Source: Promethearchaeia archaeon (lineage in GTDB: Archaea; Asgardarchaeota; Lokiarchaeia; Sigyniarchaeales; SOKP01). From it: DNA of 64,000 nucleotides. Positions 40,578 through 47,631 of the stretch are shown one piece after another. Location of the stretch: contig JAHQWG010000012.1 of assembly GCA_029856045.1 (NCBI GenBank), positions 32,001-96,000 of the forward strand. Reading direction: 5' to 3'. Below the pieces are notes generated by a model. The model worked only from the letters and a program-made list of their open reading frames with translations, made no database searches and was not told the DNA's origin. The position numbers and the translations under genes are program-made. How positions within the stretch are numbered: position 1 is the first letter of the stretch; every line of letters begins with the position of its first letter.

Positions 40578-41408
40578 TTAGCCCATTTCTTTAAGAAATT
40601 TATCTATATAATTATTTATCTCCTTATAGATTTGTGATGGTGCTAAATGACCAGCAAACTCTATTGCAATCAATTCAGAATTGGGAATTTTTTCAGCTAA
40701 TCTTTCCGAAAAAGTGAGAGGGCTGTAATTATCCAGCATTCCACCCACGATCAACGTGGGACATTTAATATCAGAAGGATCAAAACATTTCGCTTCATCA
40801 ACCATATTGAATATTTCCTCTTCGATGATTTCCTCTAATTCAGGATCACTATATTCTTGGTTTTCGGATGCCTCTTTAAGGGCTAACTTTATAAATGGAA
40901 TTGTACGGTCTAGAACGTCATCAAGAGAATTCTCTGCAATTTTTAGAAAGTTCATACGAATATTATACGGCAAAATGTTCCAAAATGACCCTCGGATATC
41001 ATTATCAATCATTAAGTCCCCAGAATTCAGGAGAATTAAGAATTTAACTTTATCGGGATGTTTTTTAGTTAGGAGTTGTGCAATCATACCTCCAAGAAGA
41101 CTATGAGATAGAATTCCAAATTTTTCATTAATTTTTAGATGTTTCAATAGATCTTCTATATCCCTTAGATATGTCTCTCTTAAATGATCCTTTAATTTTA
41201 TACTAATAGGCTTAAAACTCCTTCCAAGACCAATTGCATCAATTGGAACTAATCTATATTTTTTTTTCTTTAGAAATGAGATTTGATGTTTGAAGAAAAT
41301 AACAGAAGAAGCTTGCCCGTGTAAAAGGATAATGGGGAAATTCTTAGGATCTTCATTGATATCCTCATAATATATGCTTAGAGAATCCTTATTTCGAAAG
41401 AATGGCAT
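40578..41408 (-). CDS. Alpha/beta hydrolase
   Basis: ILLHG, D..G.GRS, SHSLLGG nucleophile elbow variant, G.LD, AGH. Confidence 0.88.
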   Translation of the reverse strand: MPFFRNKDSLSIYYEDINEDPKNFPIILLHGQASSVIFFKHQISFLKKKKYRLVPIDAIGLGRSFKPISIKLKDHLRETYLRDIEDLLKHLKINEKFGILSHSLLGGMIAQLLTKKHPDKVKFLILLNSGDLMIDNDIRGSFWNILPYNIRMNFLKIAENSLDDVLDRTIPFIKLALKEASENQEYSDPELEEIIEEEIFNMVDEAKCFDPSDIKCPTLIVGGMLDNYSPLTFSERLAEKIPNSELIAIEFAGHLAPSQIYKEINNYIDKFLKEMG

Positions 41409-41653
41409 AACTTCTTCTTTTCTTTTTTCAATTCTATTATTAAAAGTATTTGATAATAAAAATATTTTATTGAAATCATGGATTAAAATTGTAAATAGTT
41501 TTAAAATGTGAGTAAAAAGATAAATTTAAAAATAATTAATTTGATCTTGAAATTTTTTAGGAGAAAATATATAAAAATGAAGTTTAAGTTTGTTTAGAAT
41601 TTACTCATTTCTTAGTAATTATTCTACATTATTAAAAGAGAGAAAAAAAAAAT

Positions 41654-43204
41654 TTAGAAATTTTCATAGCGCAAAGAGCGAGATATTATATCCTTCCAAC
41701 AGGAATATTTCTTTTTACGTTCTTCTTCCGTCATCTGAGGTTTATAGGTTTTTTCTACTTTTCTAATCTGTAAGAGCTCATCTTCAGACTTCCAAAACCC
41801 CACTGCTAGCCCAGCCATAAAAACAGCACCTAATGCAGTAGTTTCAGGGTTACCTGTATGTTCAACATCTATTCCCAAGATATCACTTAAAAATTGAAGG
41901 AGAAATTTATTTTGAGATACTCCACCATCAGCTTTTATTTTTTCTATTTGAATTTTTGTGTCTATAATAATGCCTTCAACTATATCTTTTATCCTAAGGC
42001 AAATTCCTTCTAAAATTGCTCTTATTATATGTTCTTTTTTAGTATCTAAGTCTACGCCAAAAAGATTTCCTCGTGTGCTAGAATCCCAATATGGAAATGA
42101 AAGGCCAGTTGTAAATGTTGGTAAAAAATAAACGCCATCTGTTGAATCCACACTTAATGCCATTTTTTCCGTTTCGGAGGGATCATTATATAGTCCCAGT
42201 TCATTCTGCAACCAATCTATGATGTTACCGGCATTATGAGACATTCCTTCCGTCATATAAGTGGTTTGCTCATTGATATGCCAAGCAATTAATGGGTATA
42301 ATTTTCTTTTTGAAGCATAACATTTTTGTCCTGTATTAAGGTCTACAAATGAGCCCGTACCATTTGTAACTTTCATTGATCCTTCGTTAAAACAACATTG
42401 TCCGAATAAACTTGCCATTTGATCTCCAATTAAACATGTAATGGGTATTTCGCCGCCAAAAATTTTTGCTTTTCCGAAATCTCCTCTAGTATCTCTAATT
42501 TCTGGTAATATGTATTCTGGAATTCCCATTGCTTTTAAATATATCGAATTGTATTCTAATTTAAATGGATCAAACAAACCGGTATGAGCATTTGAATAAT
42601 CAGTAGCAAAAACCCTTCCTTCAGTTAAATTCCATAATATCCAAGTATCGATTGTCCCCCATACTACGCTAGTATTGGGGTCGCTGATTAATTCTTTAAC
42701 CTCCGGATGAGTTTCAAGAAAATATCCTGTTCTCATGGATGTATGATCAGTAGTGAATTTAATGGTTGAAAATGTTAATAATTTTATATTACGCGTAAAT
42801 AAGTAGATAAATTTTGTTATACCTCTTAAAAATCTAAAATAGAAACTTTTATTTTTTTTCTCAGTATATAAGGCACATCGTTTATCTTGCCAAGTGATAA
42901 TATTAGAATAAATTTTTCCAGTATTTTTATCCCAGAAAAGAAAGGATGCTCTTTGAGTAGTAATACCAATTGCTGCTATATTCTCGGGACTTAAATTATT
43001 TGATTTTATAACTTCTTCCATAACTTGTCTGCTTAATTCCCAGATTTCTTTTGGATCTTGCTCTACTTGACCCTTTTCTTCCATAATATATTTAGGTTTT
43101 CTTTTGGCTTGGGCGAAAATTTCACCATTTTTATCATAAATGAAAGCTTTAATGTTAGTTGTCCCAATATCAAGGCATAAAATATATGTATCCATTTTTA
43201 TCAC
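41654..43204 (-). CDS. FGGY-family glycerol kinase-like protein, GK5-like subtype
   Basis: LDIGTT, VEQDP, TQR, ITWQDKR, GTIDTW, ATDYSNA, GDQ..LFGQ, GTGSF, ADGG; extra amphipathic segment after WQD. Confidence 0.9.
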   Translation of the reverse strand: MIKMDTYILCLDIGTTNIKAFIYDKNGEIFAQAKRKPKYIMEEKGQVEQDPKEIWELSRQVMEEVIKSNNLSPENIAAIGITTQRASFLFWDKNTGKIYSNIITWQDKRCALYTEKKNKSFYFRFLRGITKFIYLFTRNIKLLTFSTIKFTTDHTSMRTGYFLETHPEVKELISDPNTSVVWGTIDTWILWNLTEGRVFATDYSNAHTGLFDPFKLEYNSIYLKAMGIPEYILPEIRDTRGDFGKAKIFGGEIPITCLIGDQMASLFGQCCFNEGSMKVTNGTGSFVDLNTGQKCYASKRKLYPLIAWHINEQTTYMTEGMSHNAGNIIDWLQNELGLYNDPSETEKMALSVDSTDGVYFLPTFTTGLSFPYWDSSTRGNLFGVDLDTKKEHIIRAILEGICLRIKDIVEGIIIDTKIQIEKIKADGGVSQNKFLLQFLSDILGIDVEHTGNPETTALGAVFMAGLAVGFWKSEDELLQIRKVEKTYKPQMTEEERKKKYSCWKDIISRSLRYENF

Positions 43205-43227
43205 ATTTTTATATTTTCTTTTGAAAT

Positions 43228-44514
43228 TTATATAACTTTAGCAATTAATTCAGTTAAGTCTATTATTTTAATTTTCTTTTTATTATTATCTTCAATTCCT
43301 TTTTCTAATCCTAATTCACAAAGCGGGCAAGCCGTAACGATTATATTTGCACCTGTTTCAATTAATTCATTAACTCTATTTTGCGAGATTTTTTCCGCTA
43401 AATCATTATTTGCCCAATGGAGCGTACCGCTATACCCACAGCAATGGGTATATTTTTCATTACAAATTGGCTCTAATAGATTTAATCCCGGAATTTTCTT
43501 CAAAACTTCTCTTGGCTCGGAAATAACATTTAAATTTCTTGACATTAAGCATGGATCATGATAGACAACGTTTTTGAATTCTTCAGGTATTTGGGTTTTA
43601 AGAATGAGTTTATTTTCCTCAATCAATTGTTTAAATAATTGTAAGATATGAATCACTTTTACTTTTAATTTAACACCAATCTTTTCATATCGATTAAGTA
43701 AAGTATCAGCACAACCTGGACAATCAGTCACAACTAGTTTTGCTCCAGAACTCGTGATTAAATCTATATTTTGCTTGGCATATTCTTTAGCTAAATCCAA
43801 ATGTCGAGTATTAAATAATGGGGCACCACAACACCATCTTTTATCTAAGTTAGTTGAGAATTTAATACCAGCCTTCTTCAATATTTCAATATTAGCTTTA
43901 ACAACTTCTGGAAATTTCATCATTTCGCATCCAATATAATAAAAAACATCATCATTTCCATCAGATTCGATATTTTCAATGCCCTTCTCTTCATAAGTCT
44001 TGAATATATTTGTGTCTTCTATAGTATGAGTTTTATTTAATTTTTCTATTTGTTCTTTTATATAACTTGGAGTCAAACCTTTATCATTAATATCATCTCG
44101 AACCGTTTCAAGCAATGAAACTACTGAAAAATCGAATGGGCACCAAATTTTACAGTTTTCGCAATTACAGCATTCATACATTAAATTAATAAAGTCTTTA
44201 TTTTCTTCTTTAGAAGGATCTATTTTGCCGACTGAAAGATAATAGCCAATTAGAGATTTATAAGCGGGTGCCATACTTTCAGTTTTTGCTCCTTGGAGGG
44301 AATTGCAATCAAATCTGCACATTTTAAGACATAACATGCAATTAATCAAATTTTTTACATCAGCTTTATATTCTCCTTGAGGATAAAAATTTTTCTTTTT
44401 CAACCTAAAATTCTTTAAAACTATTCTTTTAACATCACGGTCAGCATTTGCTATTATAGGAATCATCCATTTATACTTTTTTAATTGTTCCAAGATACTC
44501 ATTTTATTTAGCAC
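43228..44514 (-). CDS. GlpC/GlcF/HdrD-like Fe-S oxidoreductase (2x[4Fe-4S] plus two CCG domains)
   Basis: CMLC..MCRFDC, CCNCENCKIWCP, YIGC, WCCG, CPGC, YHDPC, HCCG, ACPLC. Confidence 0.9.
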   Translation of the reverse strand: MLNKMSILEQLKKYKWMIPIIANADRDVKRIVLKNFRLKKKNFYPQGEYKADVKNLINCMLCLKMCRFDCNSLQGAKTESMAPAYKSLIGYYLSVGKIDPSKEENKDFINLMYECCNCENCKIWCPFDFSVVSLLETVRDDINDKGLTPSYIKEQIEKLNKTHTIEDTNIFKTYEEKGIENIESDGNDDVFYYIGCEMMKFPEVVKANIEILKKAGIKFSTNLDKRWCCGAPLFNTRHLDLAKEYAKQNIDLITSSGAKLVVTDCPGCADTLLNRYEKIGVKLKVKVIHILQLFKQLIEENKLILKTQIPEEFKNVVYHDPCLMSRNLNVISEPREVLKKIPGLNLLEPICNEKYTHCCGYSGTLHWANNDLAEKISQNRVNELIETGANIIVTACPLCELGLEKGIEDNNKKKIKIIDLTELIAKVI

Positions 44515-45982
44515 CTCCCTTTTCAGGGGGAAAATAAGTTTTTCCCGGATTTAAAATATTATTTGGATCAAGTAAGTTTTTTATATCTATTAGTGATCTT
44601 AAAGCTTTCCCCCATTCTTTTTCCATCCAACGTGCTCTATTGATACCAATCCCATGATGATGAGCAATAGATCCTCCAGCTTTAACACATGCATCTATTA
44701 CAGCATCCCAACATTCTTGATAAAACTCAAAATCAGATTTTCCTCCAGTTGCAACCCCACTAAATGTAAAATAAAAACCAACCCCATTAGGATAAAAATG
44801 TGAGGCATGAGCAGTTATATGAAGATTACCTTTAACTTTCTTAACTGAATCAAGAACTAAATGATACAATTCTGCAGCATGTTCCCACATAACAGATACT
44901 TCAATAGTATCAAATACAATTTTATATGGCGGACCAAATGATGTTTCTGTTACCCTAAATCTGGTTTCAAACCAGTGTTCTACTGGTTCTTCTCCACAAT
45001 TAGCACCCTTATTATCTTCACATTTTTCTCTTGTAATAATTCCTTCTAAATTTACAAGTCTTTCATTTCCTTCACAAACAAAAACAGCCATAACTTTATC
45101 TTTCGCTTCTTTTATTTGAGGGAAATGTCTACTTGTTTCTGAGGTATCGTAGATGCGTATAACAGCTGGATATATTTGATTCCTTAAAATATTTCTGATA
45201 GCTTCTAATGAATCTTCGATAGTTGGAAAAGCGTAAGAGATTAATTCTCTTTTTTCTGGATATGGCCATATTTTTAAAGTTGCTTTAGTAACTATCCCTA
45301 ATGTGCCTTCTCCTCCAATAAATAATTTATCAAATTGTGGTCCAGTTGCTGCTCTTATTATTGTTTTTAGTTTAATGATTTCACCTTGTGGTAATATGAT
45401 TTCTAAACCTAAGACTATATCTTCTATTTTTCCATATTTTGTGGAAAATTGACCAGCTGCTCTATGGGCAATCCATCCACCAACAGAAGACATATAAATG
45501 GATTGGGGAATATGTCCACAGGTATAGCCTTTAGCATTAAGATATCTCTCTAAATTCATCCCATTCATACCTGCTTGAACTGTAACAGTCAAATCTTTAT
45601 CATTAATCTCCAATATTTTATTGAACTTTTTCATGTCAATAATGATTCCACCATATATTGGTATCGCACCTCCTACAACTCCTGAACCCTCGCCGTAAGG
45701 GATTATTGGAATTTTTTCCTCATTCGCTAATTTTAAAATCTTAGATATTTGATCATTATTTTCAGGCCATGTTATTAAGTCGGGTAACGCCGCTAATTGT
45801 CCTTGGATTCTCCAATTTAAAGTAATTAGCGTAGAATCTTTAGAATAAGCAATTAAATCTATTTCTCTGGTTGAAACATTTTTTTCCCCCAAAATAACCT
45901 TTAATTTAGAAAGAATCTTTTCTTTATCTTTAATCTCACATCTATTATCTTTAAAAATTAAACCAAATTTTTCAAGAGCCAT
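44504..45982 (-). CDS. FAD-linked oxidoreductase, alkyldihydroxyacetonephosphate synthase-like
   Basis: PYGEGSGV.GG, GHIPQS..MSSVGGWIAHRAAGQFSTKYGKIED, GGEGTLG, SIAHHHGIG, DPNNILNPG. Confidence 0.9.
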   Translation of the reverse strand: MALEKFGLIFKDNRCEIKDKEKILSKLKVILGEKNVSTREIDLIAYSKDSTLITLNWRIQGQLAALPDLITWPENNDQISKILKLANEEKIPIIPYGEGSGVVGGAIPIYGGIIIDMKKFNKILEINDKDLTVTVQAGMNGMNLERYLNAKGYTCGHIPQSIYMSSVGGWIAHRAAGQFSTKYGKIEDIVLGLEIILPQGEIIKLKTIIRAATGPQFDKLFIGGEGTLGIVTKATLKIWPYPEKRELISYAFPTIEDSLEAIRNILRNQIYPAVIRIYDTSETSRHFPQIKEAKDKVMAVFVCEGNERLVNLEGIITREKCEDNKGANCGEEPVEHWFETRFRVTETSFGPPYKIVFDTIEVSVMWEHAAELYHLVLDSVKKVKGNLHITAHASHFYPNGVGFYFTFSGVATGGKSDFEFYQECWDAVIDACVKAGGSIAHHHGIGINRARWMEKEWGKALRSLIDIKNLLDPNNILNPGKTYFPPEKGGAK

Positions 45983-46839: not shown

Positions 46840-47631
46840 TTAAACTTTTTCCTGAGCAATTAAAGCTGCTCCTAATGCCCCAGTTATTTGAGGTGCATCC
46901 AAATTATTATTAAACTGTGGTATTTCAATCTTAAATTCAAGTTCTTTTTCTAAGAAGACCTTCACTGCCGGGTTTTTTGCAACTCCACCACAAAAAATTA
47001 ATTGTGGCTTAACACTAATTCTTTTTGCCATAGAAGCTACTCGCCTAGCGATAGATTTGTGTATGCCGGCTGCAATATCTTCTTTCTTAGCGCCTTGTGC
47101 AAATAATGATATTACTTCTGACTCCGCAAATACTGTACAAGTTGATGAGATAGATTCCGGTTTTTTTGATCTTAATGCTAAATCACCTAATTTTTCTATA
47201 GGTACCTCTAAAGCATTTGCCATAACCTCTAAGAAACGTCCTGTGCCAGCCGCACACTTATCATTCATTTGAAAGTCTATAGGGCTCTTAGTTTTTGAAG
47301 ATATTAAAATTGCTTTGGAATCTTGGCCCCCAATATCAATAACAGAGGTTGCATCTGGAAAAAAGTATAACACACCCTTCGCATGAGCCGTGATTTCGGT
47401 TACCTTTTGATCAGCAATGTCAATAGTATGCCGTCCATAACCAGTGCTCATTATAAAAACATCTTTCTTCTTTAAATTTTCTTCAGACATTATTTGATTA
47501 AATAATTGATGACCAATTTTTTGAAAATTATGAGTAGAGCGTGCAATTTTATAATTTTTGATTTTATTATTATCATCTAATAGAACAATTTTAGTTGAGA
47601 GTGAGCCGATATCTATTCCTACAGTTTTCAT
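46840..47631 (-). CDS. 2-hydroxyacyl-CoA dehydratase activase (HgdC/BadF family)
   Basis: GIDIGS, TGYGR, DIGGQDSK, MNDKCAAGTGRF, STCTVFAESE. Confidence 0.95.
   Translation of the reverse strand: MKTVGIDIGSLSTKIVLLDDNNKIKNYKIARSTHNFQKIGHQLFNQIMSEENLKKKDVFIMSTGYGRHTIDIADQKVTEITAHAKGVLYFFPDATSVIDIGGQDSKAILISSKTKSPIDFQMNDKCAAGTGRFLEVMANALEVPIEKLGDLALRSKKPESISSTCTVFAESEVISLFAQGAKKEDIAAGIHKSIARRVASMAKRISVKPQLIFCGGVAKNPAVKVFLEKELEFKIEIPQFNNNLDAPQITGALGAALIAQEKV

Follow-up and report, generated by a model that had tools for sequence, protein, structure and literature searches.

Alkyl-dihydroxyacetonephosphate synthase (AGPS or ADPS, EC 2.5.1.26) is unusual among flavoenzymes in that it forms ether bonds with no net redox change. 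It works as a stand-alone, non-redox enzyme together with FAR and GNPAT, and its fold, common to the vanillyl-alcohol oxidase/p-cresol methylhydroxylase (VAO/PCMH) family, carries a catalytic arginine, a tyrosine and a HHH loop. Here we describe a relative of this enzyme encoded in a 64,000-nucleotide stretch from an Asgard archaeon (Promethearchaeia archaeon, contig JAHQWG010000012.1, positions 32,001 to 96,000; hereafter the window), where it forms a module with an iron-sulfur (Fe-S) protein of the CCG type and a kinase of the FGGY family. It varies a well-known logic, a kinase combined with a flavin/Fe-S dehydrogenase, and has the AGPS branch of the VAO family as its basis.

The same logic of a kinase followed by a flavin/Fe-S dehydrogenase is found in the glycerol systems GlpK/GlpABC and GlpK/FngABC, and GlpC is also a CCG protein; GlpA and FngA have a DAO fold, however, whereas the flavoprotein studied here (P0001) has a VAO fold. 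FngABC, which consists of a DAO+BFD protein, a Pyr_redox_2 protein and a DUF1667 protein, is a ferredoxin- and NAD-dependent electron-bifurcating glycerol-3-phosphate (G3P) oxidoreductase of Pyrococcus [PMC13689815]. GlcDEF and the Dld-II/LDHD enzymes with a GlcF-type CCG protein likewise combine an FAD-linked oxidase with a subunit that carries a pair of [4Fe-4S] clusters along with two CCG domains, and they are very close in fold (Z 42), but P0001 misses all of their equivalog cut-offs and shows AGPS-type residues at their metal/carboxylate-site motifs. A further relative is YgcU from E. coli, which is 30% identical to P0001 over the full length (212 bits) and has the motifs GHxPQS, SHxYxNG and HHHG in common with it. 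The ygc cluster also encodes an FGGY kinase, YgcE, but of another subtype, and its electron relay is an electron-transfer flavoprotein (ETF; YgcQR) with FixCX-like proteins (YgcNO) instead of a CCG protein; being uncharacterised, the cluster gives no function.

The window is AT-rich (GC about 29%). According to the open reading frame (ORF) calls, the genes of the module lie on the minus strand: the flavoprotein gene at 44504-45982 (492 aa), the Fe-S protein gene at 43228-44514 (P0002; 428 aa, GTG start) and the FGGY kinase gene at 41654-43204 (P0003; 516 aa, GTG start), followed by an alpha/beta hydrolase gene at 40578-41408 (P0004; 276 aa). The flavoprotein and Fe-S genes share 11 nt (44504-44514) when the Fe-S gene uses its GTG start; an alternative ATG at codon 5, four codons after the GTG, lies 1 nt past the flavoprotein stop codon. 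The Fe-S and kinase genes are spaced by 23 nt, the kinase and hydrolase genes by 245 nt. The layout given in the initial annotation, made from the sequence alone, with three co-oriented genes, the overlap, the 23-nt spacing and a hydrolase on the same strand, thus agrees with the ORF coordinates.

P0001 consists of the Pfam domains FAD_binding_4 (PF01565, 1.5e-41) and FAD-oxidase_C (PF02913, 4.4e-33). All four motifs previously quoted for it (GHxPxS, SxVGGW, YGxIED and HHHG) were found in the translation, as GHIPQS, SSVGGW, YGKIED and AHHHGIG, in addition to HFYPNG. None of the curated NCBIfam models was passed; GlcD (TIGR00387) gave 236.8 bits at a cut-off of 567.9 and NF008408 144.9 bits at a cut-off of 897. 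The best PDB sequence matches in phmmer were AGPS from Dictyostelium (2uuu, 218.7 bits) and from guinea pig (4bby, 197.9 bits), followed at lower scores by mitochondrial D-lactate dehydrogenase (146.7 bits), LctD (137.7 bits) and D-2-hydroxyglutarate dehydrogenase (98.5 bits). An AF2 model of P0001 (pLDDT 94.4, pTM 0.92) retrieved exclusively AGPS chains as the top 30 Foldseek hits (TMq 0.86-0.89, 28% identity), then LDHD; in VIA-align, LDHD (Z 42.2 over 443 residues) and AGPS (Z 41.5 over 465 residues, rmsd 2.1) were tied.

The active site points in the same direction as the sequence scores. Mutagenesis has shown that an arginine (R352 in Dictyostelium, R419 in guinea pig) and a tyrosine (Y508 and Y578, respectively) are needed in AGPS [PMC3509576]. 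In HMMER alignments to 2uuu and 4bby, R352, Y508 and the HHH loop of the Dictyostelium enzyme correspond to R276, Y397 and H441-443 of P0001, and these residues are invariant or nearly so in 60 homologues. The second catalytic arginine (R447 in Dictyostelium) aligns with a threonine within a weakly aligned loop, with R341 and R343 nearby. No phosphate-site residues are reported in an AGPS docking paper. The GEHG motif of GlcD- and D-lactate dehydrogenase-type enzymes, where it forms the metal/carboxylate site, is absent from P0001 and replaced by AHHHGIG, and HxYxxG stands for HxGDGNxH. Among the other FAD_binding_4 paralogues of this genome, a motif scan gave a single GEHG match, which makes for a thin comparison; the paralogue concerned, on contig C54, shows GEHGVG. 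P0001 therefore belongs to the HHH-loop branch of AGPS and not to GlcD or D-lactate dehydrogenase, as had been proposed from its motifs.

This does not make it an AGPS proper. Only ADPS has an extra N-terminal domain, in which a gate-keeping helix controls the lipid channel [PMC3509576]. Residues 1-3 of the P0001 model already align to residue 149/155 of guinea pig AGPS or residue 81 of the Dictyostelium enzyme, and the VIA alignment spans AGPS residues 149/155-658 only. Since P0001 starts at this point and the structural alignment leaves no residues over, it has no counterpart of the N-terminal gating domain; judged from the model, it thus amounts to the catalytic core of AGPS lacking the lipid gate. 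In addition, P0001 is paired with, or in relatives fused to, an Fe-S subunit instead of standing alone beside FAR and GNPAT. It thus differs from AGPS in two defining features, the N-terminal domain and the stand-alone non-redox mode of action, and is not a member of that family.

An exhaustive, profile-free search with P0001 yielded 1,996 cluster representatives at E <= 1e-30. HHHG is present in all but about 15 of the best 150 representatives, most of which also have HxYxxG and GHxP[QS]S. On these sequences, the HHH and tyrosine signatures would mark out a prokaryotic family of very large size, with bona fide AGPS as a small offshoot. Because HHHG-type signatures are so widespread among prokaryotic representatives, they are by themselves no evidence of an ether-lipid function. 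Distant relatives carry no other cluster names than 'FAD-binding oxidoreductase' or 'alkyldihydroxyacetonephosphate synthase'; one candidate for a true AGPS (P0268, 643 aa) was rejected at 190 bits to 2uuu. Among the representatives we found a fusion of the flavoprotein with the CCG protein in Bacillota (P0129/P0283), tandem forms of the FAD domain with 800-1000 aa, and fusions with a PfkB kinase (P0187) and with a HAD phosphatase (P0250).

In the phylogenetic tree of the flavoprotein, which took in no bona fide eukaryotic or myxobacterial AGPS, the Asgard sequences form a clade (SH-aLRT 100) nested inside an archaeal clade (99) with Bathyarchaeota, Thermococci, Theionarchaea, Methanoliparia and Thermoplasmata as neighbours. 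The loci of these neighbouring lineages mostly carry the CCG gene, FngABC and a GK5- or GlpK-like kinase, and the Asgard loci with a GK5-type kinase are the basal branches.

The second protein of the module, P0002, contains two CCG domains (1.2e-34) and a 4Fe-4S dicluster domain (Fer4_17/Fer4_8) in Pfam, i.e. two ferredoxin-type [4Fe-4S] cysteine motifs and two CCG domains as in HdrD, GlpC and GlcF. Its cysteines are invariant in 31 orthologues. It passed none of the NCBIfam cut-offs, with likeness to TfrB (184.5 bits, cut-off 385), GlpC (103 bits, cut-off 278), LdhH and GlcF. The CCG gene adjoins the flavoprotein gene in 61/61 evaluable Asgard loci and in 18/65 evaluable non-Asgard loci.

A predicted complex of P0001 and P0002 reached a score of 0.93, the best control 0.00. 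In the benchmark the mark was reached by 58/80 solved complexes and by 2/110 mismatched pairs; as our run used self-built alignments, these counts hold roughly, and a pass may also reflect likeness to solved complexes. The contacts agreed between runs in at least 85%, with a pLDDT of the partner of at least 90. The predicted interface places the first cysteine motif of P0002 (residues 57-69) against flavoprotein residues 55-61 and 342-355. The model therefore supports binding of P0002 to the flavoprotein. Because of the adjacency of the CCG partner, the complex model, the Bacillota fusion and the ETF and FixCX-like neighbours of YgcU, we read P0001 as a redox enzyme that hands its electrons to a dedicated relay and not as a classical ether-lipid synthase. 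The proposal that the AGPS-like flavoprotein has an Fe-S partner and hence a redox function was thereby strengthened. In one genome deposited as a single chromosome (CP070831.1, L014:7474-8733), the CCG region shows one internal stop over tblastn-derived coordinates; the stop might stem from the coordinates themselves, from a pseudogene or from recoding.

The kinase P0003 matches FGGY_N (1.2e-45) and FGGY_C (2.3e-34). It falls just below the cut-offs of the GlpK models (NF000756, 466.6 of 498 bits; TIGR01311, 452 of 590 bits) and scores 370 bits against GlpK in the PDB. We compared it with GlpK from E. coli MG1655, in which we take R83, E84, W103, Y135, D245 and F270 to be the glycerol-binding residues (literature numbering; one higher in our alignment). 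P0003 keeps R84, W104, D246 and F271, has an alanine at Glu85 (literature Glu84), and in place of the DPYFSG motif with Tyr135 (Y136 in the alignment) has a hydrophobic/basic segment of 38 instead of 22 residues. Its nearest clusters in the ESM Atlas, comprising bacteria as well as Chordata and Arthropoda, are automatically named 'Glycerol kinase 5' (0.98-0.99), and P0003 has a GlpK-like core with an insertion; the likeness to animal GK5 is a lead from Atlas cluster names. P0003 is a relative of GlpK with an altered substrate pocket, putatively of the GK5 type.

The altered pocket is shared by linked kinases of other lineages. Fifteen of 20 extracted kinases next to an AGPS-like flavoprotein are GlpK-like, with QR[A/S/L] for QRE and no Tyr motif, and the remaining ones are other FGGY subtypes, also without the QRE and Tyr motifs; the single canonical GlpK encountered, which lies 4 kb away in L166, keeps both. 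Within Asgard, the kinase slot is taken by either of two kinds of protein. About 14 loci have an orthologue of P0003 (63-93% identity), and the majority have an FGGY paralogue of ~486 aa (type-B) that is only about 22% identical to P0003 and scores about equally against the XylB, LsrK and GntK models without passing any of them. No type-B orthologue was found in this genome (best 31%), and no GK5-type gene in five type-B genomes, one of them deposited as a single chromosome (best 30%). The two kinds are mutually exclusive, and it looks as if one had been displaced by another with the same job. The label of a GK5-like kinase can hence be kept, as a lead, for this locus, but not for most Asgard loci with their XylB/LsrK-like kinase.

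With P0001 as the query we recovered 80 loci for the analysis of synteny; the neighbour counts for Asgard refer to 61 evaluable loci. The order flavoprotein - CCG protein - FGGY kinase - hydrolase - MazG-like protein - PurC is kept in metagenome-assembled genomes labelled as Loki-, Thor-, Odin-, Hod- and Hermodarchaeota. The flavoproteins are 66-93% identical over these loci, and the FGGY kinase lies downstream in 60/61. Such conserved synteny argues that the arrangement is not due to chance, and the identity of about 70% across phyla indicates that the unit belongs to core metabolism. The Asgard synteny alone is nevertheless weak evidence for a functional unit because the same block also conserves unrelated genes, namely GlmM, a 492-aa gene and PurC; strong evidence is the recurrence of the linkage in other domains. 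The 492-aa gene encodes a helix-rich protein without a Pfam or NCBIfam match and, in 53 Asgard loci (57-90% identity; e.g. L001:4403-5881, plus strand), lies directly upstream of the flavoprotein gene in the same orientation; in this genome it is located on another contig (G000:C41:14096-15568, 42% identity).

The hydrolase P0004 is an Abhydrolase_1 protein in Pfam (8.5e-18) and matched no specific NCBIfam family. An orthologue with about 50% identity lies downstream in most Asgard loci and is absent from the non-Asgard loci. The hydrolase is thus indeed a downstream neighbour of the module, as noted before, but in Asgard only and inside a larger syntenic block with the MazG-like protein and PurC, and whether it belongs to the unit is uncertain. 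Its nucleophile elbow (residues about 100-106) reads SHSLLGG, and GHSLVGG in about 55 orthologues, which is one residue beyond the usual GHSxGG.

Outside Asgard, 46/65 evaluable loci have an FGGY kinase gene in the same orientation at most 6.5 kb downstream. A locus from Thermoplasmata (L078) has the order flavoprotein - CCG protein - DAO+BFD protein - Pyr_redox_2 protein - DUF1667 protein - GlpK-like kinase. In Bacillota (L086/L087) a GntR regulator is followed by the flavoprotein, the CCG protein, the DAO+BFD protein, the FGGY kinase, the Pyr_redox_2 protein and the DUF1667 protein, and loci from Chloroflexota have the same gene set. In Thermococci, too, the flavoprotein/CCG pair lies inside FngABC operons. 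Acidimicrobiia, other Actinomycetota and Binatia have GlpD (DAO+DAO_C), the flavoprotein and a GlpK-like kinase without the CCG protein. In two loci from Bacillota (L091/L092) a DAGK_cat/YegS_C kinase follows the CCG gene in the slot of the FGGY kinase. The PfkB fusion adjoins a DeoC-type aldolase, a ROK protein and a sugar ABC transporter. When the Pfam domains of 101 genes flanking non-Asgard loci were counted, no recurrent partner emerged other than the Fng genes, GntR regulators and the DAGK-type kinase.

The three-gene linkage therefore recurs in Asgard and far beyond, and the lack of synteny in other genomes that would have spoken against the initial annotation was not observed. The initial annotation had seen in it a special pairing of relatives of two eukaryotic lipid enzymes in an Asgard operon; this was not borne out, as Bacteria and Archaea outside Asgard widely carry the module as well and the YgcU/YgcE pair of E. 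coli is a relative, and the Asgard/eukaryote framing is weaker than first proposed. The flavoprotein/CCG pair is not mentioned in the FngABC study [PMC13689815], nor in a survey of glycerol metabolism in Sulfolobus, and among the papers we found, none describes the flavoprotein-CCG-kinase module or gives it a function.

We propose, with a probability of roughly 45%, that the kinase and the FAD/Fe-S dehydrogenase together turn a glycerol-type alcohol into a ketone of the dihydroxyacetone phosphate (DHAP) type. In a first step the GK5-type kinase would phosphorylate a glycerol-like alcohol, for which glycerol itself would be the simplest candidate. The flavoprotein would then bind the glycerol-phosphate-type product and, by oxidising the carbinol adjacent to its CH2-O-phosphate, form a ketone: DHAP or a DHAP-like 1-phospho-2-ketone, the moiety that the active site of AGPS is shaped to accommodate. 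Electrons would travel from the FAD via both [4Fe-4S] clusters of the CCG protein to its CCG site and on to a further acceptor. What we infer in this scheme is which substrate is used, in which direction the reaction runs and which acceptor takes the electrons. The associations with a kinase, an aldolase and a phosphatase imply a DHAP-type phospho-ketone as the product, and the PfkB fusion next to a DeoC-type aldolase would fit a route from a polyol-1-phosphate via a ketose-1-phosphate to an aldolase.

Several points weigh against this proposal. The main objection is redundancy: the operons of the relatives contain FngABC or GlpD, and an FngABC-like set is encoded elsewhere in this genome. The module is thus linked to glycerol phosphate, yet does not just take the place of a G3P dehydrogenase, and the AGPS-like pair co-occurs with the GlpK/FngABC modules instead of replacing them; the suggestion that it might stand in for GlpA or GlpD is probably not the whole answer. 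Because G3P dehydrogenases are co-encoded, the enzyme may use another acceptor, another stereoisomer, i.e. sn-glycerol-1-phosphate (G1P), or a substituted glycerol phosphate. AGPS itself is non-redox, and no electron acceptor for the FAD/Fe-S pair was identified. In addition, linked kinases which lack Glu84 and Tyr135 of GlpK, as well as the XylB/LsrK-like kinase of the majority of Asgard loci, suggest from sequence that the alcohol may not be free glycerol. Finally, our literature searches brought up no biochemical data on members of the AGPS-like family.

An alternative that takes up these kinase pockets, and which we consider unlikely, places the lipid backbone in the centre: the kinase would act on a 1-O-radyl-glycerol (monoalkyl- or monoacyl-glycerol) and the pair would oxidise 1-radyl-G3P to alkyl- or acyl-DHAP, possibly with an AGPS-type cleavage or exchange at C1, in an anaerobic salvage or degradation of ether or ester lipids to which the hydrolase could contribute. 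The AGPS catalytic residues are kept, and P0003 lacks Glu84 and Tyr135, which we take to bind the glycerol hydroxyls, and has its hydrophobic/basic insertion by the pocket. The lipid-kinase-type DAGK_cat/YegS_C gene in the FGGY slot of L091/L092, the conserved hydrolase downstream in Asgard and the PlsC-type acyltransferases of this genome (see below) fit as well. On the other hand, the gating domain of the AGPS lipid channel [PMC3509576] has no counterpart in P0001, the partners of the relatives (FngABC, GlpD, the DeoC aldolase and sugar ABC transporters) speak for substrates that are soluble and phosphorylated, and Archaea are reported to have no plasmalogen pathway [preprint 10.1101/2025.10.10.681575]. 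The earlier claim of an ether-lipid salvage route thus gained no direct support. A bolder version appears rather improbable to us, namely that the module serves glycerol-phosphate stereochemistry or ether-lipid turnover in Asgard archaea, either by making or oxidising sn-G1P, in a genome without a G1P dehydrogenase above the cut-off (see below), or by oxidising and cleaving 1-alkyl-glycerol-phosphate anaerobically, and that the eukaryotic/myxobacterial AGPS is a non-redox offshoot which lost the Fe-S partner and gained the lipid gate.

The objection of redundancy would vanish if the order of the steps were reversed, so that the pair oxidises a free polyol (glycerol to dihydroxyacetone or glyceraldehyde) and the kinase then phosphorylates the triose, as a flavin-dependent analogue of GldA/DhaK. 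Some enzymes of the VAO family, the alditol oxidases, do oxidise free polyols, and the pocket of P0003 is unlike that of a bona fide GlpK. The AGPS branch is, however, defined by binding of the phosphorylated DHAP moiety; the fusions of the flavoprotein with a kinase and a phosphatase fit either order, and gene order alone lends no support, so that we rate this possibility as low.

Still less probable is a 2-hydroxyacid dehydrogenase of the D-lactate/glycolate type (GlcD/GlcF-like), which would clear D-lactate formed from DHAP via methylglyoxal. The two-subunit layout is that of the GlcDF-type enzymes, the fold of P0001 is as close to LDHD as to AGPS (VIA Z 42.2 vs 41.5), and a glycerol context could yield methylglyoxal. 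Against it stand a GlcD score far under the cut-off (236.8/567.9), a sequence score to AGPS well above that to LDHD, HHHG for GEHG and HxYxxG for HxGDGNxH, as well as nine other FAD_binding_4 paralogues in the genome, several of them near CCG-like genes, that could serve hydroxyacids. A genuine, non-redox alkyl-DHAP synthase as in eukaryotes and myxobacteria is hardly tenable, for although the catalytic Arg, Tyr and HHH are kept and JGI labels relatives as alkyldihydroxyacetonephosphate synthase, the identity to AGPS is only 28%, the gating domain is absent, the Fe-S partner looks obligate, the linkage is to kinases and G3P dehydrogenases and not to FAR/GNPAT, and it is GGGPS, also encoded in this genome, that forms the ether bonds of archaea.

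This cross-domain module of core metabolism may bear on glycerol-phosphate and ether-lipid biology and on the origin of AGPS. The catalytic core of AGPS belongs to a very large prokaryotic family that is wired to CCG Fe-S proteins, or to ETF in E. coli, and nearly always has a kinase as its neighbour and frequently G3P dehydrogenases. Once assigned, the substrate would close a gap in the anaerobic metabolism of glycerol and lipid backbones, explain ygcU/ygcE of E. coli and show from which kind of enzyme AGPS evolved; should the substrate be G1P or an alkyl-glycerol phosphate, it would bear directly on the lipid divide.

The metabolic background of this genome comprises six FGGY and ten FAD_binding_4 genes. 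The FngABC-like set mentioned above is located on contig C54 (G000:C54:33591-36775; L081:3591-6775, minus strand), where an FngA-like gene (DAO, 290 bits to G3P oxidase II) and an FngB-like gene (Pyr_redox_2) are followed by a 132-aa ORF, a putative DUF1667 protein without an NCBIfam match. The set lies beside a GPH-family transporter with no kinase adjoining. By sequence, it resembles the bifurcating G3P oxidoreductase FngABC.

With regard to the lipid backbone, neither this genome nor its 30 relatives contains a G1P dehydrogenase above the cut-off of NF002022 (413 bits). A divergent EgsA-like ORF of 120 bits is present in this genome (G000:C36:166931-167662), and ORFs of 100-190 bits occur in about half of the 30 relatives; the rest, some of them 98-100% complete, have nothing better than E around 1e-6. 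We considered the module as a replacement for G1P dehydrogenase; this was not established, and the divergent EgsA-like ORF exists. No GpsA was found in this genome. Matches to the PlsC-type acyltransferase domain (PF01553) lie at G000:C51:54179-55378, C51:59730-60098 and C34:13264-13659, with two domains in one 558-aa frame, and four archaeal control genomes gave no match. A search for FAR-type proteins (PF07993) gave weak matches only.

Upstream of the unit, the minus strand encodes at 46840-47631 an acyl-CoA dehydratase activase of the BcrAD/BadFG type (TIGR00241, 276.6 bits), which stands alone, as no adjoining dehydratase subunit was seen. A PlsA-like link of this activase to the module was dropped; among the fetched loci its position is kept only in the closest relative (L066). 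Elsewhere in this genome, at least five more FAD_binding_4 genes adjoin CCG-type Fe-S genes as GlcD/GlcF-like pairs (C15:187227/188915, C36:185761/184686, C36:256050/254392, C11:28663/27029 and C36:176947/175505).

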